From Chitinophagales bacterium (GTDB lineage Bacteria; Bacteroidota; Bacteroidia; Chitinophagales; UBA10324), in the NCBI GenBank assembly GCA_019694975.1, contig JAIBAY010000007.1:1283-65282 (forward strand): a stretch of 64,000 nt of DNA, written 5' to 3'. Each line of letters opens with the position of its first letter. Positions within the stretch are counted from its first letter, which is position 1. A model generated the notes under the pieces. That model was not told where the DNA came from and did not search any database. It saw nothing but the letters and a program-made list of their open reading frames with translations. Position numbers and translations under genes: made by a program. Below, piece after piece: positions 1,445 to 63,587 of this stretch.

Positions 1445-3724
1445 TTAATGCAATACCATCAGCTTTTGCATCTTTACCTCTTTGCCGGATTTTAATACAC
1501 AACCATAGCAGCCATCAGGTAACGCTTCTGTGTTTATGCGCACCTGCGTGACTGTTGCATCCATAGTTGCTGCGCCGCTTATCTCCTGCAGCACCCTGCC
1601 GGATAAATCGGTTATCAGCAGGGTAAAAGGCATATTGCCTGATGAAAATGTAACCAGTGTTTCGGATGATGCAGGATTGGGATAAAGGCGCATGATATCC
1701 GGAGCGTCCGTTTCATTTTCAGCTTCCTGCTGTGCAGTCATCAAACGAAGATCCGATGGATTGTATTTACTTATTGAACAGGTATTAATGTAACCGGTGA
1801 AGACCGATCCGGACTTTGCCGTAAAACCCGGCAGCAGGTTAATGTATTCGCTGCCTTTCACCGTCACATTCGCACCCGTATTGATGATTGTATTACAGGG
1901 TGCTGCATAGGAAGCGTTGAGTACAGTGGCATTGGAAACAGCTATAATGCCTTCTACTACCTGTGTAACCGGAAATGAATAGGTTCCACAGATGGAACCC
2001 AGTGCCGTCTGTGCATAATGCGCAATGCCAACCGCTTTAAAAGCCTCGCCAACAGTAATCACCGTGGGAGAGCAGCTGCCATAGAGATCAATCGCTGACT
2101 GGATAAAACAATTGCGCGTTGTAACAAAATCATCATCACCATCAATATAATGCATCATGGCCTGCCAGGCAATATCGTACACATCCCATTTTCCACCTTC
2201 CAGTGGTATTACCGCATAGGATTCACCTAAGTCGTTGGTGCCTGATCCACCTTCGGCCATCAGGTAAAAACAATAATCCAGCACGGTACAGTTGGTATGA
2301 ATGCCGCCATCATCACTGCTGCCGGTATACCAGTAGTCACCGAAATACGTGTCAGGATAGCCGTACAATTTTGGATTGTCGTAGTGCCGGACAGCGCCAT
2401 CCGATTTTTCCGCTCCAAGCTTCCAATCCACCAGCCCTGACAGGTTAGAAAATTCTCCGAAGAGATCGCAGAGCGCTTCATTGACTGCGCCGGCTTCGCC
2501 TTCCATGTCTAATGCATCAGGATGTGCATCGTTGATGATGCCATGGGTAAATTCATGGCCGACGATGTCAATCGTATTAAAATCATCCTGTGAGTTGAAG
2601 TAACTTGATCCCCTGCCAAGATTGATGTTATCCAGAAAACTGTTGAAAGACGCGGAAGTGGTATAAGGCTGATTATTCTGATCATAAAAAACCACTTCAT
2701 TGTAAACATCTACCACATCGCCCGTTCCGGAAAATCCTTCATGATCAAATGATATTTTGAAAGCATCCATCACCTGATCTACTGCATACAGTGAAGTGAA
2801 TCCCATCTGCATGCCATTATTCCATGGAAGCAGAATGCCACTGAAGCAATACGGATCGCCGGTAGCCGCATCACGGGAATACTCTTCGCTGTTGGTGAGC
2901 ACGCAGTCATCATAGCTTGCTTCTGAGACATAGCCGTCATAACAAGATTCATCGCTTACTTCGAGGAACTGCTCCCCGTTAAAGGTGGTTTCAAAATCCT
3001 CCCAATAGTTAACGCCTCCACATGCAAATACAAGATCCTGCGTACGCAGGACTTCACCGCTGATGGCATCCACATAAACAGCTTCCGTACGCACAGGCTC
3101 CTTTGCTGCAATCACCATTCGCCAGGCAAGCCGGTAGTCATTCATAGGTTGCCGTTTTGTCTTTACAAACAACAATTCAGGCTGCGGATAAAGTGTAGCG
3201 TTTTCGTCTCTTTTACGTAAACGGTAATGGCCTTCTGCAACAGGGTCTTCCCACAGGTAAACCTTAGCAGGCACCGCTTGTAAAGCATACTGAATAGCCT
3301 GCTCCGGCGAAACGGCGGGCAATATCTCTGCGGGAAGGTTTGTCGCTACCTGCCCGTTGACAAGTGAAACACTGCCATTTCGCTCATGTACTGAAAGTTC
3401 AATGCCTTCCACCCTGATGCCATGATGGTATTGCGTAAAGCGAAGGTGCCTGTTGCCTGCCTTATCAATCCGTGTATTCCACCGGCGCATTTCATCTGCT
3501 TCTGTTAAAGCAAACAACTGCGGGTGCATGCTGAAGATATGTTCAGCATCAACCGGTGCCTGATTCCTGAAGAGCCACCATCCCTCAGTGCTTCCCGGGT
3601 CGAGGAAATCAGCATATGCATCAGGGACCGTATATCCATCTGTTGATCCGGATGGCACCTGTGCTTCGCAGTGAAGCACGAAAACAATCGGTAGAAGCAG
3701 CAAAGTGGCGGAACAGTATTTCAT
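1445..3724 (-). CDS. M4 (thermolysin-like) zinc metalloprotease with T9SS C-terminal sorting domain
   Basis: HEXXH is present (VGHEFTHGI), with the downstream Glu motif GAVNEALCDLFGE. The C-terminus RLYPNPASSETLVTF...KLMVLH is a T9SS sorting domain. The start is taken at the internal MKYCSATLLLLPIVFVLHCEAQ signal peptide (ATG at 3724), although the ORF is open to 3811. Confidence 0.9.
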   Translation of the reverse strand: MKYCSATLLLLPIVFVLHCEAQVPSGSTDGYTVPDAYADFLDPGSTEGWWLFRNQAPVDAEHIFSMHPQLFALTEADEMRRWNTRIDKAGNRHLRFTQYHHGIRVEGIELSVHERNGSVSLVNGQVATNLPAEILPAVSPEQAIQYALQAVPAKVYLWEDPVAEGHYRLRKRDENATLYPQPELLFVKTKRQPMNDYRLAWRMVIAAKEPVRTEAVYVDAISGEVLRTQDLVFACGGVNYWEDFETTFNGEQFLEVSDESCYDGYVSEASYDDCVLTNSEEYSRDAATGDPYCFSGILLPWNNGMQMGFTSLYAVDQVMDAFKISFDHEGFSGTGDVVDVYNEVVFYDQNNQPYTTSASFNSFLDNINLGRGSSYFNSQDDFNTIDIVGHEFTHGIINDAHPDALDMEGEAGAVNEALCDLFGEFSNLSGLVDWKLGAEKSDGAVRHYDNPKLYGYPDTYFGDYWYTGSSDDGGIHTNCTVLDYCFYLMAEGGSGTNDLGESYAVIPLEGGKWDVYDIAWQAMMHYIDGDDDFVTTRNCFIQSAIDLYGSCSPTVITVGEAFKAVGIAHYAQTALGSICGTYSFPVTQVVEGIIAVSNATVLNASYAAPCNTIINTGANVTVKGSEYINLLPGFTAKSGSVFTGYINTCSISKYNPSDLRLMTAQQEAENETDAPDIMRLYPNPASSETLVTFSSGNMPFTLLITDLSGRVLQEISGAATMDATVTQVRINTEALPDGCYGCVLKSGKEVKMQKLMVLH

Positions 3725-3976
3725 GGGTGTTTTATTTTGAAAAAGAAAACATTCAGGCAGTTGCAACGTGAACAATTGTGTAATTGAATGCTGCCAATTT
3801 GCGCAAGTCATTTCCCGCTGCAGCAGGCATCCTTACCGTTGTGCATCCGAAGATCTCCATCCTGGCGGATGCCATGCAAAACCGTTTGGTGAACGGCGGG
3901 TTTCATTTGGTGAGCGTAGCATGCGGCATTTTAAAACAGCATTTTCTCAGCGATTATTTCTATCATGAAACTTGCT

Positions 3977-4015
3977 AAAAAAATAAACCTTCCGGTTTGA
4001 AGGCCGGAAGGTTTA
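3977..4015 (-). terminator. rho-independent terminator downstream of the 4047..6785 gene
   Basis: On the minus strand this reads TAAACCTTCCGG-CCTTCAAA-CCGGAAGGTTTA followed by TTTTTTT, about 30 nt after the stop codon. Confidence 0.75.
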
Positions 4016-4046
4016 CCCGTTCTACTGCCGGATTATACTGCTTTCT

Positions 4047-6785
4047 TTATTCTTTAATCATCGGTAGGCTGGTCATCATTCTGCCCGGCATTATTATTTG
4101 AACCGTATAAACACCAGACGCAACAGCATGCAGGTCAACTTCTTCCATATTCATTCCACTGCTGCATGTTTTCGTCAGCGAGTATATCAGCCTCGACTGC
4201 ATATCCAGCAACCGGATGCTTACCGAACCCTGATGTTCATTATTGAATGAAATATGCAGGATCTCTGATACAGGATTGGGATAGAGAACCGCATCACTCT
4301 TCGCGCTCATGCTGTTCAATTCACTCATGCGTGCTGATGTGGTGAATGACAGTTTCTTTGAATATTTGCCTGTTGACTTGTCATCATTCGCAGTATCAAC
4401 CATGGCAACCTGCCATTCGTACGTTTTGCCGGCTGTCAGGTTGTTGACCGTCATGCTGCCGATGTTGCCATTTGTTTTCTTTTTGGTCCATGGCGGAGTG
4501 TCTTTCAGGCGATACCGCACAGTGTAATATTTCGCGCACGGTAAAGTATTCCATGTGAACTGAGCGCTGCTTGCCGTGATATTGGCGGTGGCTGTATTTT
4601 TCGGGCCCGGCCCTATCTCCGATTCTTTGCTCGCACCAAAACAACTGCCCGTTGCGCCATCAGCGAATGCGGTAGCTGTGTAGAGTCCGGAAGTGAGGTT
4701 AGAGAAAGTAACTGCACCACTGCCATTGGTTAGTGCAGGAATGTTGAATGGCAATCCAAATCTGTATAGCTGCACCATATACGGTCCATTGCCTCCGTCG
4801 CACTGATAAGTGATACTGCTGTTGTTGCAATTACTTCCTATATCAGGATTGGCCGTTATGGTTGTATTGCAATTCACCTGTGTAAACGAATCTGTCAGCG
4901 AATAGGTGAAGAATTCATTTGTACCGGTGGAAAATATTTTAATGTAATAATAAGCCGGCGTAAGTCCGTTAAGGTCTACCGTCAAGGTTCCGGTTTGATA
5001 ATAATTGTAATAGATGGCTGCGGCAGCAGTATCCTTATAGATGGCAATGGTGAAATACCGCTGACAATTGCAGGCAAGGCCATTTGCTTCCGTCATCCTG
5101 ATTCTTAAAAACCCGCTTCCTGTATAGTTGATTTTCCACCAGTCAGGCTGATCATACTGGCCGTCGTAATAGAAATTAATATGGCCGGTTACAGTACCGT
5201 ATGAAGGCATCGTCCTCGCCTGAGCAGCATAATTGTTTGGTTCCGCATCTGCTGCATAAGCATAAGTGGAGAGTGTATTGGAAATAGTGTAGGTAGTGAA
5301 TTCACCATTGTAATTGGTGCAATATACTTTTACAATATAAGTGCCTGCCTTCAGGCCATCCGTTACCAAGGTGTTACTGTTCAGCCAGTAGTTAACTACC
5401 TGAATAGGTGTTGCTCCATTGTTATCATAGAGAATTACCGACAGGTAGGAACCTCCTGTGTTGAGCAGCGTAATATCAAGTTTTCCATCTTCGGCAGTGG
5501 TAATGGAATACCAATCTGCCGTATCCCTTGTGAGATTGAAATAATAACCCACATGCCCGGTCAGTGAACCTCCCTGCGGTAAAGTAACCGCGTTTGTTTT
5601 GCTTCCATTAGGTTCTGCATCATTAGCACCTGTTGCACTTACCAGTGCGGCGTTGATTGTATAGGGAGCAAATGCACTATTGTAGTCGGTGCAATAGACC
5701 TTAAAATAATAAGTACCTGCAGCAAGTCCGTTGGTTGTAAGTGTTTGTGTCGAATTGTTATAGTTGAATCCATTTAATTGCTTCGTACCGTTGTTATCAA
5801 AAAGAAAGAGGGAGAGATACTGATTGTTAACGGAGGCCAGTGTCAGGTTCAGTTGCCCGTCTGCAGCTGTAGTTACTTTATACCAATCCATAGTGTCTCT
5901 TGCCACATTATAATAATATCCGGCGTGGCCCGTTTTGGTTTCTCCGATATTGATTGATAATGCTGCCGACGGACTGTTATTCGGTTCAATATCATTGGCA
6001 ACGGTTGGAGTTATCAGGGTATCTTTAATGATGTATGGAGCAAAATCGTCTGGGTTGGTACAATAAATTCTAAAGTAATACGTGCCGGCTGCAAGCCCAT
6101 TGGTATTAAGTGTCTGCGTGGAATTGTCGTAGTTGAACCCATTCAAAACTGTTGTGCCATTTTTATCATACAGGAAGAGAGAAAGATAATGCGCATTGCC
6201 CGAGCTCAAAGTGAGGGAAAGTTGTCCGTCACTATTGGTGGTTACTTTATACCAATCTGCAGTATCGCGCTTCGCGTTAAAGTAATAACCCACATGCCCG
6301 TTTAATGTACTGTTTTGCGCCAGGGTGATAGCCTGTACGCTTGAACCATTAGGTTCCAAATCGTTTGATTGTGATGGTACGGTGAGCAAATCCGAGATGG
6401 TATAAGATGGTTGTTCACCGATATTTGTAGCATACACTTTAACGTAGTAGGTTCCCTGCGCCAGCCCGTCTGTATTCTGCGCTGTAGTGCCATTCACATA
6501 GTTCACAATATAATTGAGCCCCGTTGTTCCATTGTTGTCATAAAGCTGGTAACTGAGATAAACGCCATTAGTGGATGTGAGTGTGAGGCTGATCATGCCG
6601 TCTGCATTGGTGCTGATTTTCCACCAGTCCACATCACCGCCCGGCGTCACAGCGCCTGTATTGTTTCCATTCAGTGCCAGTTTATTGGCTTTCGACTTTG
6701 TATCGTTCGGTTCTGTTTCGGTTCCCGCTGCAGTAAACCAAAGCAAAGAACACAAAACAATAGCGAGTAATTTATTTGTTTTCAT
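4047..6785 (-). CDS. secreted repeat protein: about 5 PPC/pre-peptidase-like beta-sandwich repeats, a fibronectin-III domain and a T9SS sorting domain
   Basis: Signal peptide MKTNKLLAIVLCSLLWFTAAG. The module EPN(D/G)...A..L......G....(Y/F)....D..DWYK(V/I)TT..DG.L.LTL...N....L.L(Y/F)D.NG is repeated. An FN3-like ITASSAQFTWN...YTVRYR is followed by LYPNPVSEILHISF. It is a paralogue of 45427..47793. Confidence 0.85.
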   Translation of the reverse strand: MKTNKLLAIVLCSLLWFTAAGTETEPNDTKSKANKLALNGNNTGAVTPGGDVDWWKISTNADGMISLTLTSTNGVYLSYQLYDNNGTTGLNYIVNYVNGTTAQNTDGLAQGTYYVKVYATNIGEQPSYTISDLLTVPSQSNDLEPNGSSVQAITLAQNSTLNGHVGYYFNAKRDTADWYKVTTNSDGQLSLTLSSGNAHYLSLFLYDKNGTTVLNGFNYDNSTQTLNTNGLAAGTYYFRIYCTNPDDFAPYIIKDTLITPTVANDIEPNNSPSAALSINIGETKTGHAGYYYNVARDTMDWYKVTTAADGQLNLTLASVNNQYLSLFLFDNNGTKQLNGFNYNNSTQTLTTNGLAAGTYYFKVYCTDYNSAFAPYTINAALVSATGANDAEPNGSKTNAVTLPQGGSLTGHVGYYFNLTRDTADWYSITTAEDGKLDITLLNTGGSYLSVILYDNNGATPIQVVNYWLNSNTLVTDGLKAGTYIVKVYCTNYNGEFTTYTISNTLSTYAYAADAEPNNYAAQARTMPSYGTVTGHINFYYDGQYDQPDWWKINYTGSGFLRIRMTEANGLACNCQRYFTIAIYKDTAAAAIYYNYYQTGTLTVDLNGLTPAYYYIKIFSTGTNEFFTYSLTDSFTQVNCNTTITANPDIGSNCNNSSITYQCDGGNGPYMVQLYRFGLPFNIPALTNGSGAVTFSNLTSGLYTATAFADGATGSCFGASKESEIGPGPKNTATANITASSAQFTWNTLPCAKYYTVRYRLKDTPPWTKKKTNGNIGSMTVNNLTAGKTYEWQVAMVDTANDDKSTGKYSKKLSFTTSARMSELNSMSAKSDAVLYPNPVSEILHISFNNEHQGSVSIRLLDMQSRLIYSLTKTCSSGMNMEEVDLHAVASGVYTVQIIMPGRMMTSLPMIKE

Positions 6786-7012
6786 AACCTTGTATTTAGT
6801 CAATACAAAATTATGTTTGAACTGACCGGTCAAAAAATGATCTGCATCAGTTTATCTTTTTTCAGGCGGGCGTTTCAACAACTGTGCCCGGAGAAAACCA
6901 TGATGTGATTCAAAGCGATATGCTGGAGGGTTTTTATTTATATAGCATCTCGTGCAACGGCTCGTTTTATTCATCATCTGAGAAGGTATAACGGTAGTAC
7001 GATATAATGTAA

Positions 7013-8385
7013 TTGCGATCGCGTGGAGCCTTCATGAGATGCTGAAATAAATTCAGCATGACGTGTGGCAGATTCAGCATGACGTGTGGCAGATTCAACA
7101 TGACGTGCGGCAAATTCAGATTCACGTGCAGCAAGTGCAGCATAGTATGCAGCAATAACGATCGCGTGGAGCCTTCATGAGATGCTGAAATAAATTCAGC
7201 ATGACGTGTGGCAGATTCAACGTGACGCACGACAAATTCAGCATGAAGTGCGGCAAATTCAGATTCACGTGCAACAAGTGCAGCATGGTTTGCAGCAATA
7301 GCGATCGCGTGGAGCTTTCATGAGATGCTGAAATAAATTCAGCATGACGGGTCGCAGATTCAACGTTACGCACAGTAAATTCAGCGTGATGCACAGCATA
7401 TTCAACATGACGTGTGGCAAATTCAGATTCACGTGCAACAAATGAAGCATGGTATGCAGCTATAGCGATCGCGTGGAGCCTTCATGAGATGCTGAAATAA
7501 ATTCAGCATGACGAGTGGCAGACTCAACGTTACGCACGGTAAATTCAGCATGACGTGCGGCAAATTCAGATTGGCGTGCAACAAGTGCAGCATGGTATGC
7601 AGCAACAGCGATCGCATGGAGCTTTCATGAGATGCTGAAATAAATTCAGCATGACGGGTCGCAGATTCAACGTTACGCACAGTAAATTCAGCGTGATGCA
7701 CAGCTAATTCAGTATGACGTGTGGTAAATTCAGATTGGCGTGCAGCAAGTGCAGCATAGTATGCAGCAATAACGATCGCGTGGAGCCTTCATGAGATGCT
7801 GAAATAAATTCAGCATGACGGGTCGCAGATTCAACGTTACGCACAGTAAATTCAGCGTGATGCACAGCAAATTCAGTATGACGTGTGGCAAATTCAGATT
7901 CGTGTGCAACAAGTGCAGCATGGTATGCAGCAATAGCGATCGCATGGAGCCTTCATGAGATGCTGAAATAAATTTAGCATGACGTGTGGCAGATTCAACG
8001 TTACGCACAGTAAATTCAGCGTGATGCACAGCATATTCAGTATGACGTGTGGCAAATTCAGATTCGTGTGCAACAAGTGCAGCATGGTTTGCAGCAATAG
8101 TGATCGCGTGGAGCCTTCATGAGATGCTGAAATAAATTCAGCATGACGGGTCGCATATTCAACGTTACGCACAGTAAATTCAGCGTGATGCACAGCAAAT
8201 TCAGCGTGATGCACAGCAAATTCAGCATGACGTATGGCAAATTCAGATTCACGTGCAACAAGTGCAGCATGGTATGCAGCAATAGCGATCGCATGGAGCC
8301 TTCATGAGATGCTGAAATAAATTCAGCATGACGGGTCGCAGATTCAACATGACGCACGGTAAATTCAGCATGACGTGTGGCAGAT
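7013..8385. repeat. hierarchical tandem repeat array: 21-bp subrepeats organised into 9 higher-order units of 143/164/185 bp
   Basis: The junction GCGATCGC(G/A)TGGAGC(C/T)TTCATGAGATGCTGAAATAAATTCAGCATGACG recurs. Its TGA falls at 7035, 7178, 7321, 7485, 7628, 7792, 7956, 8120 and 8305, giving spacings of 143, 143, 164, 143, 164, 164, 164 and 185, that is 143 + n x 21. Between junctions lie 21-mers such as AAATTCAGCATGACGTG(T/C)GGC. Confidence 0.92.
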
Positions 8386-8496
8386 ACTTTAATGAAGCAT
8401 TAGCCGCATCCTGAGCGATGCAATTTTTATTTACACTCAAAAATGAACGCTAAGATTGCCGCGAATCTATCGCACCATGTCCTAAAGCAATTCATG

Positions 8497-9531
8497 TTAT
8501 GAAACTTCATCGCTGCAGCGGAGTTCCCATTGCCAGGCGGATCGCATCACCTCTTCCAAAGAACGGGATGGTTTCCAACCCAGCATTTTCTCTGCTTTCG
8601 TGATATCGGAATAGACTGCTATTGCATCACCTTCACGGCGGGGGCCAAGCCGGTATTTTAATGCAATGCCGGTAGCCTTTTCAAAGGCATGCACCATTTC
8701 CAAAACACTTACACCATTGCTTGTACCAAGGTTAATGATATCAAAAAAAGAAGGTGATTCCTGTTTTTTTCTTACCAGAAATTCAAGCGCCAGCACATGC
8801 GCATCTGCCACATCCATTACATGCGGATAATCACGGATACACGATCCATCCCGTGTAGGCAGGTCGCTTCCAAACACGACAAACTCCGGTTGTTTTCCAA
8901 TTGCGGTTTTCGTGATGGCAGGAACGATGTTCTGTGGCTTCTCTTCCATCGGCTCACCAAGCAGTGCAGATGCATGCGATCCCACCGGATTAAAATAGCG
9001 CAGCGCAAGGGCATAGCATGGGAATGCCTTCACAAAGTCTTCTATCATCATCTCGCCCCAGAATTTGGTTCTGCCGTAGGGTGATTCCTGCTTCACGACA
9101 GAGGTATCCTCCGTCACCGGCAGCCGTGCTATGTTTCCATACACTGAACTGGAGGAAGAAAAAATGAGATGCGGAATTTGGAATTGCCGCATACATTCCA
9201 TGATATGCACCTGTGAGAAAAGGTTGTTATGATAATACATCAGCGGATCAGCCACTGATTCACCCACCATTTTGTACGCGGCAAAGTGGATAATGCCTGC
9301 AATGTCTTTTTCCTGACTGAAGACGTTCGTCGTGACCTGCTGATCGCACAGATCCACTTCATAATTCCGGAAAGTTTTGCCGGTAATCTGTCTCACACGG
9401 TCGGGCACATAACTTCTGCCCCGTCGCATATTATCAATGCTGACCACATCAAACCCTTTGTTTAGCAGCGCCACAATAGTGTGCCCGCCGATGTAACCAC
9501 AGCCGCCTGTCACCAGAATTTTAATGCTCAT
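8497..9531 (-). CDS. galE: UDP-glucose 4-epimerase
   Basis: N-terminal Rossmann motif ILVTGGCGYIGGH, the SDR YxxxK region SPYGRTKFWGE, and full-length similarity to the GalE pattern. Confidence 0.9.
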   Translation of the reverse strand: MSIKILVTGGCGYIGGHTIVALLNKGFDVVSIDNMRRGRSYVPDRVRQITGKTFRNYEVDLCDQQVTTNVFSQEKDIAGIIHFAAYKMVGESVADPLMYYHNNLFSQVHIMECMRQFQIPHLIFSSSSSVYGNIARLPVTEDTSVVKQESPYGRTKFWGEMMIEDFVKAFPCYALALRYFNPVGSHASALLGEPMEEKPQNIVPAITKTAIGKQPEFVVFGSDLPTRDGSCIRDYPHVMDVADAHVLALEFLVRKKQESPSFFDIINLGTSNGVSVLEMVHAFEKATGIALKYRLGPRREGDAIAVYSDITKAEKMLGWKPSRSLEEVMRSAWQWELRCSDEVS

Positions 9532-21207: not shown

Positions 21208-21927
21208 TTATTTCGGTTTGTCGTGTTCACTGACTTTGCCCGCACTTTTCCAGATGTAAATCGCCCAAAATAAGGCCGCAATATTCAGCAGCATATAACC
21301 GATAAAGGATATCACATCCATTAAGCTATACTCCCTGGAACCGCCGTAATACATTACAAGCGGGGCGATATAAAAGATACAACTAAACAGCGGCAGATAG
21401 CTCAGCCAGCGCGGGAAATCCTCATAAAAGGCAAGCAGCAGGCAGGAAGGAACAATCAGTGCTGTCGCGCTGGTGAAGATGTCATACACCTTTTCATATT
21501 CTTCAATGGTGAATTGCCGGATCTCAAAATAAATCACGAGGCTGATACCATTGGCTATCGCATACATGGTGAAACCGGCTGCCGCCAATGTCTTCTTTTC
21601 TTCTGTTAGCTTCAGCCCCATCAGCGTGGAGGAAAATATCACCAGGGCGACAGCAAGCGATTGTAGTATCAATACGATTTTAGGATAATAAGGCGGATTC
21701 TGCGACATATCCACCGGAAAGAACGGGGCTGTGCAATTCAGCAGGAAGCTCAGCACGAATCCCGCCGCAGTGATCTTTGAAACAAGTTTCATACTCTCGT
21801 GATGTTGCATGGGTTGCTTTGGGATGAATTGACTAATATAGAAATCTTTATTCTCTTCAATGAACCCCGACCGTAACAAATTCACAAGTTGCAATTGTGT
21901 ATGTTTTTTTGGACCGTACTCATACAA
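21208..21927 (-). CDS. hypothetical integral membrane protein
   Basis: A 239-aa ORF with about 6 hydrophobic segments. I recognise no family. Confidence 0.55.
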   Translation of the reverse strand: MYEYGPKKHTQLQLVNLLRSGFIEENKDFYISQFIPKQPMQHHESMKLVSKITAAGFVLSFLLNCTAPFFPVDMSQNPPYYPKIVLILQSLAVALVIFSSTLMGLKLTEEKKTLAAAGFTMYAIANGISLVIYFEIRQFTIEEYEKVYDIFTSATALIVPSCLLLAFYEDFPRWLSYLPLFSCIFYIAPLVMYYGGSREYSLMDVISFIGYMLLNIAALFWAIYIWKSAGKVSEHDKPK

Positions 21928-23519: not shown

Positions 23520-25457
23520 TCAGTCATAGACCGGTAAATCAAACTGCTTCCTCACCTTTCGTATATACTCATCGTGCCAGATCGCTTTGCAGAAATCATC
23601 GCCATACATCTGCAGTGCATAGGTGGAGCGGGCTTCGATGCCTATGTCAAAATAATGATAGAAGCTTTGCAGATCACCCTGCAGCATGCACATGTAGCCG
23701 TAAAACAATCCGAAATCAGGTGTGGGTTGCTGATCGTAAATGGCTTTGAACTTTGCCATCACCACTTTTAACTTTTCAAGTTCGCCGGCATAGCCGTAGC
23801 AAGAGGCCAGGCCTGCCAGCACATACGGATGGTCACCGGCGATCTTTTGATTTTCTTCGAGAATACCGGTGCCTGCTGCGGTTTGTCCCATCTTCACTAA
23901 GGCATACCCTTTCAATTGCAGGGCAAGAAAGTTATGCGGGTTAAGTGCCAGCGACCGCTCCGCCATCTCCAGGGTTTTATCATTGTCGCCGATGCTCAGG
24001 AAAATTCTCCCTGATTCGGCAAGAGAGCGCGGGCTCATCGGATCCACTTCAGCAATGCGCATCGCTACGGCTGCCGCCTTCTTTTTGTCCAGGACCAGCA
24101 CATAATATTCCCCAAGCATAAAGTAACAGGAAGGCTCACTGGGATTGATCTGATTCGCTTTCATCAGCAGCGCATGGGCGCCTTGCCAGTCCCATTCATG
24201 AAACTTCACGCTTGCCATCGCCACGAGCGCTTTAGGATTGGCGGGCTGTGAACGGATGGCAGCTTCGGCATGCTCATGAAACCTCCTCACCACTTCCTCC
24301 GCCGGAACGTCACTCACATATCCCGGAAAGAGGTAGATGTTGGCGAGCACAGCATGTGCATTGGCAAAATCAGGATCCAGCGCAACCGCTTCATGCAGCA
24401 ATTGTAAGGAATGGCTGCGCACCTTTGGGTCGAGGTTATCCCAGTTGTAAGCACCTTCGAGGTATTTCTTATAAGCCTCGAGGCTCTTCGTGGGCGCTGT
24501 CGCCAGCGGCGACTCATGTTGCTCAGTGGCAAAGTTGGTTTTCAGTTTATTGGCGATGTTCCTGGCAATCTCATCCTGCACGGCAAAAATATCTTCCAGG
24601 TCGCGGTCATAATTGGCACTCCAGAAGTGATAACCGTCAGAAGCGTTGATGAGTTGCGCCGTGATGCGCACTTTGTTGCCCGCTTTGCGTACGCTGCCTT
24701 CAATCACTTTCTGTACATTCAGCCTCGCTGCAATTTCCCGCACATCTTCCTGCTTACCCTTAAAAGCAAATGCCGAGGTGCGCGATGTAACCTGGAGCCC
24801 ATCAACCTGCGCCAGCACATTGATCAGCTCTTCCGTGATGCCATCACAGAAGAATTCATTTTCCGGATCTGAACTCATATTGGCGAAAGGCAATACGGCG
24901 ATGCCGTTCAGCGCAGTTTTTGTTTTGCCGGTCATCTCCTCTCTCGAAGGCACCATGAGTCCCGGGTTGGTCACGGCATATACCTGAATCGGTTGTTTCA
25001 CATTCTTCAGCTCGAAATAACCCAGTGGCTTGGTAGTGATGCCTTCGGTATTTTTTACTTCATCATACAGTTTTTCGGAGATGAAAACACCGCCGGGCGT
25101 AGATAGTGATTCTATGCGTGAGGCAATATTTACGCTATCGCCATACACGCCGTTTTCATCTGTCATCACATCGCCGGTATGTATGCCGATCCTGACATCA
25201 ATCTTCGGCGCCGTCAGGAAGAGTGATTGCATTTCAACTGCGGCCCTCACGGCATTCACTCCGCTGTTGAACATACTCATTGTACCATCGCCATAAAACT
25301 GCAGCACTTTTCCGTCATACTTGGCAAGCATAGATTCAAAAATCTGCTTGCTGCGGTCTCTTTTCTGCACGGCCAGCTGTTCATTCTGCTGCATGAGTGC
25401 GGTATAGCCGACCATATCGGTGAACATGATAGCGGCAAGCTGACGGGTGGCTGGCAT
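23520..25457 (-). CDS. class III adenylate/guanylate cyclase fused to a TPR-repeat region
   Basis: The N-terminal catalytic domain reads AAIMFTDMVGYTALM...QFYGDGTMSMF...RIGIHTGDV...GVYGDSVNIASRIESL. The C-terminal half is TPR-like. Confidence 0.85.
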   Translation of the reverse strand: MPATRQLAAIMFTDMVGYTALMQQNEQLAVQKRDRSKQIFESMLAKYDGKVLQFYGDGTMSMFNSGVNAVRAAVEMQSLFLTAPKIDVRIGIHTGDVMTDENGVYGDSVNIASRIESLSTPGGVFISEKLYDEVKNTEGITTKPLGYFELKNVKQPIQVYAVTNPGLMVPSREEMTGKTKTALNGIAVLPFANMSSDPENEFFCDGITEELINVLAQVDGLQVTSRTSAFAFKGKQEDVREIAARLNVQKVIEGSVRKAGNKVRITAQLINASDGYHFWSANYDRDLEDIFAVQDEIARNIANKLKTNFATEQHESPLATAPTKSLEAYKKYLEGAYNWDNLDPKVRSHSLQLLHEAVALDPDFANAHAVLANIYLFPGYVSDVPAEEVVRRFHEHAEAAIRSQPANPKALVAMASVKFHEWDWQGAHALLMKANQINPSEPSCYFMLGEYYVLVLDKKKAAAVAMRIAEVDPMSPRSLAESGRIFLSIGDNDKTLEMAERSLALNPHNFLALQLKGYALVKMGQTAAGTGILEENQKIAGDHPYVLAGLASCYGYAGELEKLKVVMAKFKAIYDQQPTPDFGLFYGYMCMLQGDLQSFYHYFDIGIEARSTYALQMYGDDFCKAIWHDEYIRKVRKQFDLPVYD

Positions 25458-25992: not shown

Positions 25993-26452
25993 AATTTTAT
26001 GCTGAACCGTAAAAATAGGAATATGGTATTAATGAAGTAAAGTAATCATAAAAAAAGCAAGTATGAAAAACCGGGCACTGACTGCTGATCGGTTCAGCCA
26101 ATTGATCTGCCGGCATAAAATCAGCCGATAGTCTGCTTGCAGCATACGGGATTTACTATGGCCATTGAAATAAACATCCTTCAAAACCCGGCATGTTCAA
26201 AGGCATAAGCTGCTTCGGAAATTCCATCCTCGCCTATCTGCTGCAAGCCTGCCCTGCTCCACAGTTTAGTAGTGGAAAACAGTAGCCGGTGATTCAGCAC
26301 CGCAAAGCATAGTTAACAGAAACAACACGACAGCTGAAATGGCTGATCCATTCAATCAGCAAATTACTTCCCTGCATATTATGTATCCTGTTGCCTGTTG
26401 TTTTATCAGTTTTTATTCATCCGGTGCAAACCGCGCGATATATATTTGCCGG

Positions 26453-26986
26453 ATGAAAAAAATGTTTCCCGCATTGGCACTGATATGTGTTGTGGTCAAT
26501 GGTTGTCTCTTTTACGCTAATCCTTCCGAAAATCCGCCACGTACATTTATGAAAAGCCTGGCAAAGCATGACGGCAGCTGGACGCTAACGCAGCTTTCGC
26601 TTATAGCTTATGATACAGATCCGTTTATGCCCGGCGCAGCACCGGTTATTGATACGGTCTATTTAAATACCGGGACTTTTCATTTTGATAATTATAATGG
26701 CGATATCGATGGCACCGGATCATTTACCGTAACCAGTGGTACCGAAAGCAACTTCACTTTTAAGGTGCCTGATTTTGATGAAACGATGAAGCAGTCGCCG
26801 GAGATGAGTATCTTCTTCAACGGTTATCCCGTGATGATCTGTAATGGCAATGATTACAAAGAAGCGGATACCTATACGCTTACCGGACAGGTTACGGATG
26901 TTGTTACCACCTTTCCTTTGGTGCAATCCATTCCAGCAGGGGATTATCAACTCTTAGAATTCACGATACAGATAAAAAGGAATTAG
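26453..26986 (+). CDS. hypothetical lipoprotein
   Basis: The start is taken at MKKMFPALALICVVVNGC (signal peptide plus lipobox-like Cys). The ORF is open from 26339. Confidence 0.55.
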   Translation: MKKMFPALALICVVVNGCLFYANPSENPPRTFMKSLAKHDGSWTLTQLSLIAYDTDPFMPGAAPVIDTVYLNTGTFHFDNYNGDIDGTGSFTVTSGTESNFTFKVPDFDETMKQSPEMSIFFNGYPVMICNGNDYKEADTYTLTGQVTDVVTTFPLVQSIPAGDYQLLEFTIQIKRN

Positions 26987-28303: not shown

Positions 28304-29380
28304 TTACATGAAGGAATCTATTTTGTTTCGACTTACTTCTTGCAGAAAGGGACTGTAAGTTGTTGTAATCAAATTTGTCAAAGCAGGTTCAGATTTTAAT
28401 AGTTCAATCATACGATACCTATCAATTAAAACAACATCATAAATGTCAAGTGGGTTAAACCATGCCAAGGATTCGTCTCTCAAATGTCGAGGAACAAAAT
28501 GATAAGTTAGGTAACCATTTTCAAATTGAACGTATTTGCTCCATTTAGATTCATGAGCATCAAATTCTTTAGTTATCCAATCAGTGCCACACGCACATTG
28601 GCCAAAAAATGTCGGTTGTGAAAATTGGTTGTCTGTGAAGTTGTAAACACCAACCCAGTCTAGACCACCATCGCCAACATTATGAAGTCCTGAATTCTCT
28701 TCTGTAAAATTTGTCCTTGGTGCCACATGAAGCAAATTGCACAATTCTAAAACTTTGTCATAGAATTTTCCCGAAATAGACGGAGTTAAATATTCTCCTG
28801 CTCCTGAACCAAAGAAAATATTTTGAGTATTATTTGGAGTCAATTTCTTAAACGCTGGTCCACATAATTCTTCAAAATGATGCCCAAGTCTGTTAAGTCC
28901 ACTTTTTGTCGCAAGTCTTAATAGGGATGAACAAAGTAATATCAAATAAAGTGTTTGACTAATTGTCAATTCTACTTTTATAGTTATGTCGTTATTTGAA
29001 ACAACAAATGGATAATCATCTCCAAAGTGCTTTTGACGAGATTTCAATAATGTGAAATAGTAATTTATTTTAGATGAAATCTTATCTCTCAAAGCAGGAT
29101 TGTCGCTTGTTTCATCAAAAACCTCATCTTCAATTAATTCGTCTGGAGAAGCAATAGAAGTGACCAGTTCTATTATTTCATCTTCGTCCGCTACATCTTC
29201 AATTGCAACTAGTGGATTATTTGAACTCTCATCTAAAAGTCTGTCCGCAATTTGTTGCTCGCTGATTTTCCCTTCCTGTGAAATGAAACAGAAGAATTCA
29301 ATATGGTCGGCCCAATGATTAGGTTCGGAATTTAGCTTGGGCAAACTAAGGTCTTGGTATTTTAAGTATGCCATAGCCAT
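28304..29380 (-). CDS. uncharacterised protein with an acidic N-terminal third and a C-terminal Mrr-like (PD-(D/E)xK-type) motif; second gene of the ParB-like cassette
   Basis: The 358-aa ORF starts inside TAATG, overlapping the upstream stop. An acidic run reads IEDVADEDEIIELVTSIASPDELIEDEVFDETSD. The C-terminal HNVGDGGLDWVGV...FFGQCACGTDWITK resembles the GDGGID...QxK nuclease core. Confidence 0.8.
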   Translation of the reverse strand: MAMAYLKYQDLSLPKLNSEPNHWADHIEFFCFISQEGKISEQQIADRLLDESSNNPLVAIEDVADEDEIIELVTSIASPDELIEDEVFDETSDNPALRDKISSKINYYFTLLKSRQKHFGDDYPFVVSNNDITIKVELTISQTLYLILLCSSLLRLATKSGLNRLGHHFEELCGPAFKKLTPNNTQNIFFGSGAGEYLTPSISGKFYDKVLELCNLLHVAPRTNFTEENSGLHNVGDGGLDWVGVYNFTDNQFSQPTFFGQCACGTDWITKEFDAHESKWSKYVQFENGYLTYHFVPRHLRDESLAWFNPLDIYDVVLIDRYRMIELLKSEPALTNLITTTYSPFLQEVSRNKIDSFM

Positions 29381-30477
29381 TAAATATTGTCTTTCTCTCT
29401 AATTTTTTTTGTAATCGTCCGACTTATGAGTTCAGCAGAATCAATTATTTCATCTGCGACTTTCTTGTCGTTTTTATCTGGGTTGGAACTTCTGTGAATA
29501 ATCTTTTGAGCTTCAACTAAATTTTGCAAGGCTTTTGTCAAATACAATCTAATATTTTCATCGGCTAAATCTGTTAACTCTGCTGCTTCTTTTAATGTTT
29601 TTTCTCCACTAATAAATGATTCTCTAGCTTCAATATTTTGAATTACTTTGTTTAAGACTCTAAGATTTCGATTATCTCCAATTCTTGTTTTACCGTTTGA
29701 TAATTTCTCGTAAAGCCAATGAGTTACTTCTTTTAATCTTTCTTGATTGATATCCGAAAATGGAGAATCTGACTCCATATTGATGCCCATAAATTCAGCT
29801 AATGCCGTATGCATTGTAATTGCATCGGTAATTAAAGATAAGTCAAAATTTTCTTCATCAAGTTCAGGAATATTGTAATATTTTCTGCTTTGAATTATTT
29901 CAAATGCTTCATATCCTGTGAGTAACCTTCTTACATAAGGTGCTTTACTTCCGATTTCTTTTGCTAATTCTTTATAAACGCTAGGGCCACCTGACTTTTT
30001 TTGTTGATAAAGATGGTTTAGATACCTTGCTTTAGAAATTACCGGCCATTGTTTCACGCCAGTCACATGTCGGAATGCAAGGTAATTTTCTACTTCCTTC
30101 CGTTCACTTACTACATAAACCCAAAGTTTATGTGGAATATGATTTTTCTCTTTTGCATCGTTGGATAAACTTTCAACTGCTTTGGGGCTAATTATTGCTA
30201 ACCCAGGGTTGGTAAGAAGTTTTATTGCTGCTAATCTTCGATTCCCTTCAATGACAATATATGTTTTGTTGTCAGGTATAACGATTATTGGCTCGCCTGA
30301 AAAAAAGCCATTCTCAGAAATTGATGCCATTAAGTCAATTAAAGTAGCATCAGACAGCATCCAATTTAACACTTCTTTATCAGAAGCCCCTTTTAAACGC
30401 TCTGGAAGTCGTGGATTACTATGGTCAAGCTTGAGATTTTCTATTTCAACCTCAACAAAATTTGTTTCAGATTTCAT
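29380..30477 (-). CDS. ParB/Srx N-terminal domain (ParB-like nuclease fold) protein; first gene of the cassette
   Basis: EVEIENLKLDHSNPRL ... PIIVIPDNKTYIVIEGNRRLAAIKLL is the ParBc arginine box. The start is taken at MKSETNF (30477); the ORF is open to 30537. The remaining ~250 aa are not assignable. Confidence 0.85.
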   Translation of the reverse strand: MKSETNFVEVEIENLKLDHSNPRLPERLKGASDKEVLNWMLSDATLIDLMASISENGFFSGEPIIVIPDNKTYIVIEGNRRLAAIKLLTNPGLAIISPKAVESLSNDAKEKNHIPHKLWVYVVSERKEVENYLAFRHVTGVKQWPVISKARYLNHLYQQKKSGGPSVYKELAKEIGSKAPYVRRLLTGYEAFEIIQSRKYYNIPELDEENFDLSLITDAITMHTALAEFMGINMESDSPFSDINQERLKEVTHWLYEKLSNGKTRIGDNRNLRVLNKVIQNIEARESFISGEKTLKEAAELTDLADENIRLYLTKALQNLVEAQKIIHRSSNPDKNDKKVADEIIDSAELISRTITKKIREKDNI

Positions 30478-30574
30478 TGCATAAATTAAATGAATCGTTT
30501 GCAAATATACTTGAATTAGACATTGAAATATTTTCAAAAAGTCTTTGAATAATTATACTGTCGATTGATATTAG

Positions 30575-40291: not shown

Positions 40292-43200
40292 ATGACCGAC
40301 TCACCTTCATCCACAGGAATGAAACAGCCACTCGATGAACTGATCAAAATGCTTCAGCAGGCAAACCCTTTGTCAGCCGGTGAGCGTGCCTTATTGGAGG
40401 ATACACTGAAGCAACAACAGCGGGAACTCGACATCGAAGCATCACTGGAAAAGGTCCGCGCCATTGCCTTAGGTATGAATCAACCTGCAGACATGCTCGA
40501 AATCTGCAAGACCATCAGTAAGGAACTGACAACCCTGGGCGTGAAAGCAATACGCAATGTGCAAACGGCGATTTTTCATGAAGAGAAAGAAATCTACCTC
40601 AACTTCGAATATTACTCAAAGCACGACAAGACTGTTTTTACAGAAACGGAATACCGGAATCATCCGCTGCACAATGAATTCGCCCAACAGATGCTGAAAG
40701 GCGCCGGTGAAGTATTCATTCGCACCATCAGCAAAAAAGAGTTGCCGGATTGGATTACATATCAGAAAACAACCAATGTATTCATTGATTCATTTCTCGA
40801 ATCGGCATCTTCACTCACCTATTACTGGCATTCTCTTGGTCCGGTTGCGCTGGGCATGTCAACGTATGAGCTGTTGCATGAGGAAGAGATTGCATTGTTC
40901 AGACGATTCAGGAACGTCTTTGAACTTTCTTATCGGCGCTATCTTGATATAGAGAAGGCCGAAACACAGGCACGTGAAGCGCAGATTGAAACATCCCTCG
41001 AACGCGTGCGCGCCGTTGCACTGGGTATGCGAACACCCGATGATCTGCTGAATATCTGCGAAACACTCTTTCATGAGTTGCTTGCACTCGGTTTTTCGGG
41101 GATGCGTAATGCCATGATCAACATACACAATGATGAGAAGAAATCATTCATCAACTATGATTTTTCTGATGAGATAGGAAGAAGCACGAATCACCTGACA
41201 TACACGATTCATCCGCTCGTTGAAAAGCAAATCAAAAAAATCCGCAGTGCGAATGATGCATTTTCAGAAACGTATTTCACCGGAAAAGATTTAGAGGAGT
41301 GGAAGAAATTCAGAAAGCTCATTGGAGAAAAAGATGATCCGCGGTTGAATCAAAACTCAGGACTCTATTACTATTTCTATTCAATCGGCATCGGTTCAAT
41401 CGGCATTTCCACATTCGGTGCCATCAGCGACGAAAAGATAGCCATGCTGAAACGGTTCAGAAACGTGTTTCATCTGTCGTATCAGCGATACACTGATATC
41501 GCAAAAGCGGAAGCGCAAGCCAAAGAAGCACGGCTCGAAGCATCACTCGAGAAAGTGCGGGCGCAGTCCATGGCTATGCATACGACAGCGGAACTGAAAA
41601 CTGTAGGCGAAACAATCTACCATGAACTGAGATCACTCGGCTTCGCTGATATCCGCAACACGGAGATCATCATTAATAAAGATGAGCAGGAAGCCATAGT
41701 TAGCTACTACTGCGACTACGGAGTTTGCGGCACGATCGAGATTGGATACAAAGCAAATCCCATTCTGCAACAATGGGCAAATGATCTGAAGAAAGCAAGC
41801 GATGCCTTTGTTCCCGTAGTCATCTCAGAAAAAGAAATGCCCGGCTGGAGAAAATTCAGAGAGGAAATCGGTTACCTGCCGGATGAAAAACTCAATGCCG
41901 CTGCTTCGGTTTATTACTACTCCTGGTCAACAGGGCTTGGTGCGCTGAGTGTTTCATCCTTTGCTCCGGTCAGCGAAGAGCAAATGAAAATGCTGGCTCG
42001 CTTCCGGAATGTGTTTGCACTCGCGTATCGAAGGTATGTGGATGTGGCGCTTGCAGAAACGCAGGCGCGTGAAGCGCAGATCGAACTCGCACTGGAGAGA
42101 GTTCGTGCAAGAACGATGGCCATGCAAAGAAGCGACGAACTGAGGGAGGTCATTCAGACTGTATACGAACAACTAGTTCATCTGTCTGTTGATACTGACC
42201 ATACAGGATTTATTCTGGATTACAAGGAAAGAGATGATTTCCATAGCTGGATAGCAGATCAGTTCGGAACTCCGTCAGAGGTAACGATTCCATATTTTGA
42301 TTGCATCTATTACAATCGTTTTAAAGAAGCAAAAGAAAAGGGAACAGATTTTTTTGCCACCACCCTTAACCTCGAAGAAAAAAACAGTTTTTACAGAGAG
42401 CTGTTTAAACATGTTCCCGGTTTTCCGGAGGAATCAAAAAAAATCATTTTCAGCCATCCGGGTTTTTCCATTTCCACTGTGTTACTGCAGGATGTTGCCC
42501 TGTATATCGAGAACTTTACCGGCATTCCCTATTCAGAGGACGATAATGACATCTTGAAGCGATTCGGAAAAGTTTTCCAGCAGACCTACACCCGTTTCCT
42601 CGACTTGCGAAAAGCAGAAGCACAGGCGCGCGAATCACAGATTGAATTAGCGCTTGAACGCGTCCGCGCAAGAACGATGGCCATGCAGCGCAGCGATGAG
42701 CTTATAGCAACCACTGCTGTTCTCTTTGAACAATTCAGGCAGCTGGGAGAAAACGTGGAACAGATATCAATCGGAATATTCGGCGAAGAAGAAAACACCA
42801 TCGAAGTATCAGCTACATATCATGCCAGTCCGTTGAAGCGGATTTTTAAAGCACATATCAATGACTGGCCGCTGTTTGAACAGATTTACACGTTATGGAA
42901 ATCAGGCGCAAAATCAGGAAGTGTGGAGTTAAAAGGAAAGGAGTTGCATGACTACAACCGTTATCGCAGTGAACTTTCCGGTACGCAGTTCGGCAACGAA
43001 AATGAATCACCTGATGATCGCTGGATCATCAACATAGCGAGCTTCTCAAAAGGCATCATCTCTTTTTCAAAAGATGAACCTGCGGAGGAAGAAACCATTC
43101 AATTACTGGAGCGCTTCGCCAAAGTTTTCGATCTAACCTACACCCGTTTCCTCGATCTGCAAAAAGCAGAGGCGCAGGCGCATGAGGCGCAGATTGAGGC

Positions 43201-62279: not shown

Positions 62280-63587
62280 TTATAATAACCGCTTTCCCTT
62301 CCTTGAATTACAACTCCTACACATAAGTGCAGCATTACTTAAAACACTTTTACCTCCTAATGCATAAGGTTTAATATGATCTATTGTAAAATTATCCCAG
62401 GTCAACTTCTCACCACATGATTTGCAATTCTTCGCTAATTCACTATTCCAAATTAACCTTCTTTGTTCGGTGTTGAATCCGCGTTTCTCATCTTTCCTTT
62501 CGAAGATGCCATTAAATAACTGTAAAAGAACCTGCGCTCTTCGATTTCTGGTAGTCGAACTATCGCTGTCCCCGCGTGTAGTAAATAGATAAGCTGCAAA
62601 TAATTGTTGGTCTGGTTTTGCCCCTTTTGCTTTTGAAATTTGAGTTCTGAGTTCGTCGACCCCGTTTGACATCCATTCCAGCAATTTCTGCGCTTGCCAA
62701 TTCCGATTTTTAACTGTTAAAATCATCTTGTCGTTGTTCAGTTGCCACACCATCATGAAAATTGAATACAATTCTGCGGAATTTCTAAACCGGGTTGAAC
62801 GAATATTTGGAAAGAGCCTTTTAACAAGATTCAAGGTGGTGACAAACTCTCTACGGCATCTCTTTAATGACCGGTCATCAATAGTTTTACCACTGATAAT
62901 CCTATCAAGAGCTGTTTTCTTATTCATTAATTGCTTTGTATGAAATGATGCCAATAATTCACAGATCAGCTCAATGTGCTTCATGCGTGATAAAAGGCCT
63001 GCCGATAACACCCTGTTTTCAAGAAAATATTTGTAATATCTGTTACCTAACTGCCCTGCAACTTTTAAAAACTGACTACTATAATACCGGGCATGCCTTT
63101 TTTCCTGGCCTGTAAGCCGCTTGCCAGTAGAATTAATCCTTACAAATAAATCAATTATATCAGTAAGGTCACCGCTGACTTCTACAGTTTGTAATTTATA
63201 ACCGGTAATTTTATGCTCTCTCCTGGATCTTTTAAGCTGCTGCCAATCCCATAATCTATAATTTTCCTCATCACTGAAGCTATATTTAACCTGAAACCAA
63301 TCTCTTTTAAACTGACGAATCCCAAGAAACATCAATATCGATTCAATTCTTTGTTTACCATCTAAAACATCATACTTTAACCTCCCTTTGTCATCCGCAC
63401 TTTTATAAAGAAAAATAGATGGCACCGGATAGTTTTGCAACAATGATTGAATCAATTTCTTTCGATCGTTAAGCGACCACACTGATTGCCTTTGAAAACC
63501 AGGTTCTAGGTTTAACCTTCCTTGATTAAATAGTGAAACAAAATCTTGAACATCTTTGCTTCCATAATCAAAATCCAATGTCTTCAT
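62280..63587 (-). CDS. DUF262 (GmrS/ParB-like) N-terminal domain fused to a C-terminal HNH endonuclease; GmrSD-like type IV restriction candidate
   Basis: N-terminal LEPGFQRQSVW...PVPSIFLY...YDVLDGKQRIESI gives the DUF262 FQR and DGQQR-type boxes. C-terminal CKSCGEKLTWDNFTIDHIKPYALGG...NAALMCRSCNSRKG gives the HNH with flanking Cys pairs. Confidence 0.85.
   Translation of the reverse strand: MKTLDFDYGSKDVQDFVSLFNQGRLNLEPGFQRQSVWSLNDRKKLIQSLLQNYPVPSIFLYKSADDKGRLKYDVLDGKQRIESILMFLGIRQFKRDWFQVKYSFSDEENYRLWDWQQLKRSRREHKITGYKLQTVEVSGDLTDIIDLFVRINSTGKRLTGQEKRHARYYSSQFLKVAGQLGNRYYKYFLENRVLSAGLLSRMKHIELICELLASFHTKQLMNKKTALDRIISGKTIDDRSLKRCRREFVTTLNLVKRLFPNIRSTRFRNSAELYSIFMMVWQLNNDKMILTVKNRNWQAQKLLEWMSNGVDELRTQISKAKGAKPDQQLFAAYLFTTRGDSDSSTTRNRRAQVLLQLFNGIFERKDEKRGFNTEQRRLIWNSELAKNCKSCGEKLTWDNFTIDHIKPYALGGKSVLSNAALMCRSCNSRKGKRLL

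Follow-up and report, generated by a model that had tools for sequence, protein, structure and literature searches.

The 64,000-nucleotide stretch of contig JAIBAY010000007.1 analysed here (hereafter the window) holds, between a galE-like gene and a gene for a secreted PPC-domain protein, a two-level tandem array of nine units built around 21-bp sub-repeats, and thereby raises the question of what such an array is, how it arose and whether it does anything for its host. Multi-level arrays are uncommon in bacterial chromosomes, and 21 bp corresponds to two helical turns; an earlier note on this DNA, which recognised no mobile element in the locus, had left a protein-binding array and a coding repeat as conceivable options. 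We find that the junction of each unit carries a hairpin of the CGTC-tagged repetitive extragenic palindrome (REP) type, that the 21-mers correspond to half-copies of it, and that the array as a whole is likely to be a non-coding, lineage-specific, REP-seeded higher-order tandem repeat, in other words a bacterial 'minisatellite', for which no sequence-specific function needs to be invoked.

Both levels of the array described by the earlier note, together with unit lengths that differ in whole 21-bp steps, are borne out by the coordinates. A regular-expression search places the junction starts at 7017, 7160, 7303, 7467, 7610, 7774, 7938, 8102 and 8287, with spacings of 143, 143, 164, 143, 164, 164, 164 and 185 bp, and Tandem Repeats Finder (TRF), which the note had proposed running, recovers the expected 21 and 143/164/185 bp as well as 307 and 328 bp, and the unit periods show 0% indels. 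Nine copies of the 33-nt junction core are present in the window, compared with 0 in 100 shuffles, and none of them falls in the remaining 62.6 kb. Each unit opens with a 32-nt head, continues with five to seven 21-mers and closes with a 6-nt tail, and the canonical REP orientation is the minus strand throughout, the same direction as both flanking genes:

7015–8385, minus strand: the whole higher-order tandem array, eight full units and one truncated, all head to tail.
7017–7159, minus strand: unit 1, 143 bp; REP at 7036–7063 (in plus-strand coordinates, tail GAG 7036–7038, stem 7039–7046, loop 7047–7051, stem 7052–7059, tag 7060–7063); five 21-mers, the first near-perfectly duplicated.
7160–7302, minus strand: unit 2, 143 bp; REP at 7179–7206; five 21-mers.
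7303–7466, minus strand: unit 3, 164 bp; REP at 7322–7349; six 21-mers.
7467–7609, minus strand: unit 4, 143 bp; REP at 7486–7513; five 21-mers.
7610–7773, minus strand: unit 5, 164 bp; REP at 7629–7656; six 21-mers.
7774–7937, minus strand: unit 6, 164 bp; REP at 7793–7820; six 21-mers.
7938–8101, minus strand: unit 7, 164 bp; REP at 7957–7984, with one stem mismatch; six 21-mers.
8102–8286, minus strand: unit 8, 185 bp; REP at 8121–8148; seven 21-mers, one of them perfectly duplicated in tandem (AAATTCAGCGTGATGCACAGC twice).
8287–8385, minus strand: unit 9, truncated, 99 bp; REP at 8306–8333 and three 21-mers, forming the galE-side edge of the array.

Some details of the earlier description need adjusting. 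It had placed a perfect hairpin and the palindrome GCGATCGC in every junction: eight of the nine hairpins are perfect, the copy at 7957–7984 being the one with a mismatch, and GCGATCGC is intact in six junctions and broken in three, with GATCGC kept in all nine. The array does lie between two minus-strand genes but, rather than filling the whole intergenic space, takes up about 80% of its 1,711 bp, leaving 111 nt on the galE side and, on the PPC-gene side, 229 nt that hold that gene's own promoter.

What, then, is the hairpin at each junction? Read on the minus strand it is CGTC-ATGCTGAA-TTTAT-TTCAGCAT-CTC, with CGTC unpaired and directly 5' of the stem in all nine copies, an 8-bp ATGCTGAA/TTCAGCAT stem that opens A-T/T-A, the 5-nt loop TTTAT, and a tail, again invariant across the nine, that begins with C and differs from the family consensus CCA. 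As an isolated DNA hairpin it reaches a free energy of -6.8 and -7.3 kcal/mol (z of about -5), which is significant but modest. CGTC-tagged REPs are a described family of putative miniature mobile elements, defined by an unpaired CGTC at one end, an 8–9-bp stem starting A-T/T-A, a 4–5-nt loop and a 3-nt tail with the consensus CCA; they are known from Proteobacteria, Chlorobi, Bacteroidetes, Spirochaetes and Thermotogae, occur mostly as head-to-head (HH) dimers with clusters rare and head-to-tail (HT) pairs 'negligible', and have no associated transposase (Di Nocera, De Gregorio & Rocco 2013, BMC Genomics 14:522).

A scan for the 25-nt hairpin core in one genome per species located it at no fewer than 120 loci in other genomes, in many of which it is multi-copy and dispersed. 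Among the matches listed, the core-bearing genomes comprise Pedobacter (several copies per genome), Tenacibaculum, Draconibacterium, Lutibacter, Chitinophagales and Prolixibacteraceae and, outside Bacteroidota, Sphingobium, Treponema, Saccharibacteria, Elusimicrobium and a gammaproteobacterial metagenome-assembled genome (MAG). The loci fetched from these genomes define a hairpin family, CGTCA-NNCTGAA-yTTrT-TTCAGNN-TC, with covarying stems and usually arranged as inverted pairs. In 0.9 Mb of such core-bearing loci, 227 perfect hairpins (8-bp stem, 5-nt loop) directly follow CGTC versus 0–1 following each of seven permuted tags; 80 of the 227 have a stem other than the query stem, position 1 of the stem is always A, and the tails start with C, mostly as CTT or CTC. 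Since its tag, stem and loop match the published definition and the tag test on the fetched loci agrees, the junction hairpin is, on sequence grounds, a member of the CGTC-tagged REP superfamily, and the earlier view that no mobile element is recognisable here is not supported. The note had also allowed that the unit might be a known element present in many copies elsewhere; this applies to the REP core of about 30 nt, which is the only part of the unit to match anything in the other loci (120 listed), and not to the unit as a whole.

Pair orientation in the fetched loci (HH 54, HT 14, tail-to-tail 12) underlines that the array, with all nine copies head to tail at 143–185 bp, is unlike the family's usual HH dimers; as that arrangement is typical rather than strictly defining, the hairpin remains a member and the array an atypical arrangement. 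No RAYT (REP-associated tyrosine transposase) or other transposase was found near the REPs: the RAYT-like signature HUH...YxxxNP is absent from six-frame translations of the window and of 121 loci, and the window has no transposase Pfam match. A literature search with the hairpin sequence itself gave no match. Two further observations concern the family at large. The identical 25-nt core ATGCTGAAATAAATTCAGCATGACG recurs across phyla among the matches listed (loci L010–L129), an exact conservation of REP sequence type that stands out, given that co-evolution with the host is assumed for such elements, and in Pedobacter it usually sits in an HH heterodimer with a ACCCTGAA-stem partner 60–66 nt away.

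The REP also accounts for the lower level of the array. In canonical orientation each 21-mer consists of six variable nucleotides followed by CGTCATGCTGAATTT, that is, the REP tag, the 5' arm and the first three loop bases, and across the 49 21-mers the high-information block spans positions 11–21, arm plus loop (GCTGAATTT), with the remainder decaying. On the minus strand a unit runs from a 27-nt spacer through four to six progressively degenerate half-REPs at a 21-nt period to one complete REP. The 21-mer types follow the same order in every unit, the nine copies being about 90% identical, which indicates that the run of 21-mers arose and diverged before the block of about 143 bp was amplified. 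Sequence variants are moreover shared between units, including non-adjacent ones (e.g., 1 and 5, 2 and 7, 6 and 7), and together with the duplicated 21-mers bear the mark of slippage combined with unequal exchange or gene conversion; the perfect 21-mer duplicate in unit 8 is a recent one-step slippage.

We therefore arrive at a history in which a single CGTC-tagged REP hairpin would have seeded the locus; the tag-side run of half-REPs at a 21-nt period formed and diverged first, the whole block of about 143 bp was then amplified to nine head-to-tail copies, and later gain or loss of single 21-mers yielded the 143-, 164- and 185-bp units. As a mechanism we propose mispairing of slipped strands together with exchange between the direct repeats, by unequal recombination or gene conversion, possibly favoured by stalling at the hairpin.

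The genomic context bears on the age of these events. The flanking genes and the signals next to the array are as follows:

8497–9531, minus strand: galE-like UDP-glucose 4-epimerase gene, upstream flanking gene, with the array 111 nt past its stop codon.
4047–6785, minus strand: gene for a type IX secretion system (T9SS)-secreted protein with PPC, fn3 and Por_Secre_tail domains, downstream flanking gene, 912 aa from the ATG at 6785.
6806–6838, minus strand: Bacteroidota-type promoter of the PPC gene, TTTG, 21 nt, TAATTTTG (at 6813–6806).
8406–8431, plus strand: terminator-like hairpin and T-run just outside the array on the galE side, of low weight.

The nearest named galE relatives belong to Chitinophagales MAGs (67% identity) and at least 11 proteins of the window bear a type IX secretion sorting domain, features by which the source genome is identifiable as that of a T9SS-bearing, Chitinophagales-like member of the Bacteroidota. 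In the closest relative available, a sister species whose galE and PPC proteins are 89% and 79% identical, the same galE-to-PPC-gene order is kept around a spacer of about 190 nt with no REP and no array, and the synteny is lost in more distant relatives. The insertion and expansion of the array are thus recent and lineage-specific, and in the sister species the neighbouring genes can dispense with it. Of the spacer, the last 80 nt or so before the PPC-gene ATG are alignable between sister and source, including the -7 box, and the sister species retains the PPC-gene promoter as TAACTTTG; the array ends upstream of this promoter and so forms no part of it.

Several points weigh against the REP-seeded minisatellite. 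The slippage mechanism and the neutrality of the array are what we infer; a head-to-tail cluster is atypical for CGTC REPs according to the published survey, where clusters are rare and head-to-tail pairs 'negligible'; no other REP copy that would point to a dispersed family in the source genome lies in the remaining 62.6 kb of the window; the array's copy number is supported by the window's assembly alone; and the variable half of the 21-mer has a weak third-position dip in the minus-strand 'ATRHAEF' frame discussed below. With these in mind, we regard the array as probably neutral, with the possibility, by analogy with known REP clusters, that it may act as a 3' untranslated region (3'-UTR) hairpin barrier.

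That possibility, put more strongly, is the alternative that survives best, although we consider it rather unlikely: a functional REP cluster in the galE 3' UTR that would shield the 3' end of that mRNA and dampen transcription running on into the PPC-protein gene. This reading fits the origin given above and adds to it only the claim of a selected function. The array sits between two co-directional genes, its REPs are in sense orientation to both, no canonical galE terminator lies ahead of it, and the PPC gene has its own conserved promoter after it. If galE transcription enters the array, the nine hairpins would be in sense orientation and could act as 3'-end mRNA protection and as partial terminators before the next gene. 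The E. coli REP325 cluster, with 12 hairpins between yjdM and yjdN, works likewise as an upstream mRNA stabiliser and partial terminator, and REPs in general are enriched downstream of open reading frames (ORFs) (Di Nocera et al. 2013, BMC Genomics 14:522). Yet the sister species manages without the array, the hairpin, AT-rich and with about -7 kcal/mol, is a weak one, and nothing is structured beyond it, as the folds of two-unit stretches are no more stable than those of shuffles, whichever strand is taken (z = +1.55 and +1.14), which also disposes of a larger RNA structure. A single hairpin would suffice for such a role, leaving the nested half-REPs unexplained. As for the terminator-like hairpin at 8406–8431, it reads correctly on the plus strand only and would terminate an antisense transcript crossing the array; terminator-like sites are no more numerous than in shuffles.

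A different concern is that the repeat is real and its unit number an assembly artefact, expanded or collapsed, which we hold to be improbable. Eight short-read contigs from different sequencing runs carry an identical galE, are 100% identical to the window and all begin at 8319, inside the outermost REP, and a contig coming from the opposite side, likewise at 100% identity, ends at 7044, inside the first REP. Independent contigs thus break inside the edge REPs, showing that the repeat is present at both array edges in independent samples; every short-read assembly breaks at the array and no independent sequence spans it, so that the internal copy number depends on the window's assembly. Against an artefact, the units bear distinct substitutions and mosaic variant patterns and differ in length by exact multiples of 21 with 0% indels, unlike a collapsed or noisy long-read consensus.

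More speculative still is the idea that the array is a fossil of CGTC REP multiplication itself, left by a single-strand DNA-processing enzyme that would act at the CGTC tag, through rounds of nick-and-recopy or through template switching, to which we assign only a slim chance. It draws on the extra tag-side halves of the array itself, four to six per unit, and on single orphan halves, tag plus 5' arm, that stand beside complete REPs in other genomes; there are six of these, with a 21-nt offset in three, always on the tag side and never on the tail side (L034, L084, L087, L065/L124 and L130). Two of the orphan-bearing loci share flanks and are not independent, and the pattern is suggestive but thin. 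If true, the array would offer the first mechanistic handle on the CGTC REP superfamily; directional tag-side half-REPs may bear on how these elements spread without a dedicated transposase, a weak lead.

The two options left by the earlier note fare worse. A coding repeat would here take the form of a micro-gene array expressing 40–54-aa Cys-rich plus-strand peptides (MTCGRFNVTHSKFS...CSNSDRVEPS), minus-strand 'ATRHAEF' heptads or 18-aa 'MKAPRDRYCCIPCCTCCT' peptides, and is very unlikely. Four of the six frames of the basic 21-mer are open; the plus strand has one ATG...TGA ORF per unit, of 40, 47 or 54 aa, whose size follows the 21-bp steps; the His-rich 'ATRHAEF' frame of the minus strand is stop-free inside every unit and shows the weak third-position dip; and a Shine-Dalgarno sequence is not required in Bacteroidota, making its absence uninformative. 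However, the plus-strand ATG and TGA lie within the REP consensus (CGTCAT reversed is ATGACG, and the tail CTCATGA holds TGA), such that the start and stop codons and open frames of the array are by-products of it. In-frame stops interrupt two of the nine plus-strand ORFs, the minus-strand 'AEF' frame lacks a start codon and meets a TGA ahead of every unit, and since all unit lengths are 2 mod 3, no frame continues from one unit to the next. The 38 inter-unit substitutions split 11/13/14 by codon position, with no excess of synonymous change in any frame (best uncorrected p = 0.09). Programmed frameshifting that would keep the 'AEF' frame was likewise set aside, with no slippery site by inspection and the TGA ahead of each unit.

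Database searches agree. Indexed searches of 5.8 billion proteins gave no homologue for either strand, a Pfam scan of the array frames gave nothing, and exact look-ups of the array ORFs in public gene calls found nothing on record. An exhaustive search of 1.8 billion representatives returned four weak matches, of which two were traced to their DNA: P0124 is encoded by a 7-nt microsatellite in an archaeal-looking contig and P0121 by an unrelated GC-rich 21-mer in a eukaryotic assembly, both coincidences, and the idea of half-REP heptad arrays in other proteins, which the four matches had raised, was rejected. The coding option thus falls with the 2 mod 3 units, the missing synonymous excess and the lack of true homologues. 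The practical consequence concerns false gene calls, as the REP consensus yields ATG...TGA micro-ORFs and a His-rich heptad frame that resemble genes. A locus encountered along the way, L137 (1–55, 187–545 and 2394–2498), holds a GH57 gene with 7-nt microsatellites making up both its 5' and its 3' end, in an archaeal-looking contig with the DP2 polymerase next door; its repeats (CATTCCG-type, about 51 copies; TCGTCAC, 13.6 copies; upstream CGAAATA, 7.9 copies) are heptanucleotides translated as heptads.

The other option, an array of iteron or centromere type whose bound protein would serve replication, partition or regulation (cf. sopC of the F plasmid), could appeal to about fifty 21-bp-phased sites with a common conserved 11-nt block and to the 8-bp inverted repeat in each unit, yet is scarcely credible given that the 64-kb window has no Rep, Par, recombinase or adjacent regulator gene, that the locus is chromosomal with a syntenic sister species lacking the array, and that the conserved block is simply the REP arm.

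Three further candidates were rejected outright. The locus is not a CRISPR array, as the earlier note had rightly held: there are no unique spacers, the sequence between hairpins being itself repeated in every unit, the window has no cas domains, and Rfam gave no match. A structured RNA family or NsiR1-type tandem small RNA (sRNA) array finds no Rfam match at gathering threshold, no extra fold stability and no per-unit signals, as intrinsic terminators are absent from the units and so are exact promoters of the Bacteroidota (TTTG...TAnnTTTG) or sigma-70 type. A cyanobacterial HIP1 or NsiR1-like sRNA array is contradicted by the flanking T9SS domains and the Chitinophagales relatives as well as by Rfam; the source being a member of the Bacteroidota and not a cyanobacterium, GCGATCGC is not HIP1.

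Apart from the array, the window (1445–62077) is unusually rich in T9SS cargo, with at least 11 ORFs that end in Por_Secre_tail, alongside M4 peptidase, PPC/fn3 (two ORFs), NHL, Kelch, sulfatase, PLD, FG-GAP and arylsulfotransferase domains; one such ORF, of 1,334 aa, has no other recognised domain. It also encodes two large adenylate/guanylate cyclase-domain proteins (23520–25457, minus strand, and 40292–44413, plus strand), the first kind bearing TPR repeats, the other protein being 1,373 aa long and recognised only in its C-terminal cyclase domain, and a GmrSD_N and HNH protein (62280–63587, minus strand) that resembles a type IV (modification-dependent) restriction endonuclease. Four ORFs of 358, 385, 239 and 215 aa, at 28304–30537 (minus), 21208–21927 (minus) and 26339–26986 (plus), have no Pfam match at E <= 0.001.

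In light of these results, the array becomes recognisable as a REP-derived higher-order repeat, an unusual architecture built from an ordinary class of element. With it, the range of CGTC REPs comes to include an uncultured Chitinophagales lineage, and the family gains a long head-to-tail array with nested half-copies, an arrangement type called negligible in the family survey. The array breaks every short-read assembly of the source organism at the same two bases, and the locus constitutes a natural variable number tandem repeat (VNTR)-type strain marker.

How does the array compare with known structures? REP-bearing tandem units occur in five other loci among those fetched:

L021: 110 bp, 1.9 copies.
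L041: 62 bp, 1.9 copies.
L100: 153 bp, 2.4 copies, with adjacent 14-nt sub-repeats.
L106: 140 bp, 3 copies.
L120: 123 bp, 2.6 copies.

None of the five comes near nine units and none has phased half-REPs. At L100 (5–437) the 153-bp REP unit is flanked by runs of 7/14-nt repeats (TTCACTA/TTCATTA), forming a small two-level REP-associated array. At L106 (2394–3080) five REP copies lie within about 700 bp, each 140-bp unit containing an HH pair of a ACCCTGAA-type and a ATGCTGAA-type hairpin, and the locus is a cluster of CGTC REPs resembling the bacterial interspersed mosaic elements (BIMEs). When metagenomes were scanned for half-REPs phased at 21 nt, the one contig to emerge was L130, which is unrelated and in which a related REP, accompanied by one half-REP duplicate offset by 21 nt, lies inside a 667-aa ORF (3100–5103, minus strand). 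That ORF holds three REP-type hairpins (4595–4745), one CGTC/ATGCTGAA-like and two of the form TGTC-ATCCTGAC-gcag-GTCAGGAT, which are intragenic REP insertions of the Rickettsia palindromic element (RPE) kind. Rickettsia RPE-4 and RPE-6 correspond to CGTC-4 and CGTC-1, and their REP sequence is open in several frames and mimics coding sequence (Di Nocera et al. 2013, BMC Genomics 14:522); the present array belongs to the same superfamily and is likewise open in several frames, but lies between genes, and no single frame runs through it.

With CGTC-2-like REPs the array shares the CGTC tag, the 8-bp A-T/T-A stem, the 5-nt loop, the short tail, the occurrence in Bacteroidetes and the lack of a transposase, and the identical 25-nt core forms the usual HH pairs in Pedobacter, Tenacibaculum and Sphingobium, among others. 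It departs from them in being clustered and all head to tail, in its nested half-REP 21-mers, in the tail CTC instead of CCA, and in lacking dispersed copies elsewhere in the window.

The E. coli BIME-2/REP325 clusters, of up to 12 palindromic units, resemble it in the local tandem amplification of REP units with flanking DNA, here nine units each made up of one REP and 115–157 bp of accompanying sequence, and in their location between co-directional genes; given its position and sense orientation, which are compatible with such a role, REP325 would be the closest functional analogue of the array. The E. coli clusters are, however, of the GTAG type, arranged as alternating Z2-Y pairs, RAYT-linked and free of any nested sub-repeat, and from these as from other described REP clusters the array differs in its CGTC tag, its strictly head-to-tail arrangement in one orientation and its nested half-REPs. 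It shares with minisatellites and VNTRs a two-level periodicity (21 bp within 143–185 bp), lengths in whole sub-repeat steps and a mosaic sharing of variants typical of unequal exchange, and is set apart from them by its seed, a recognisable REP hairpin.

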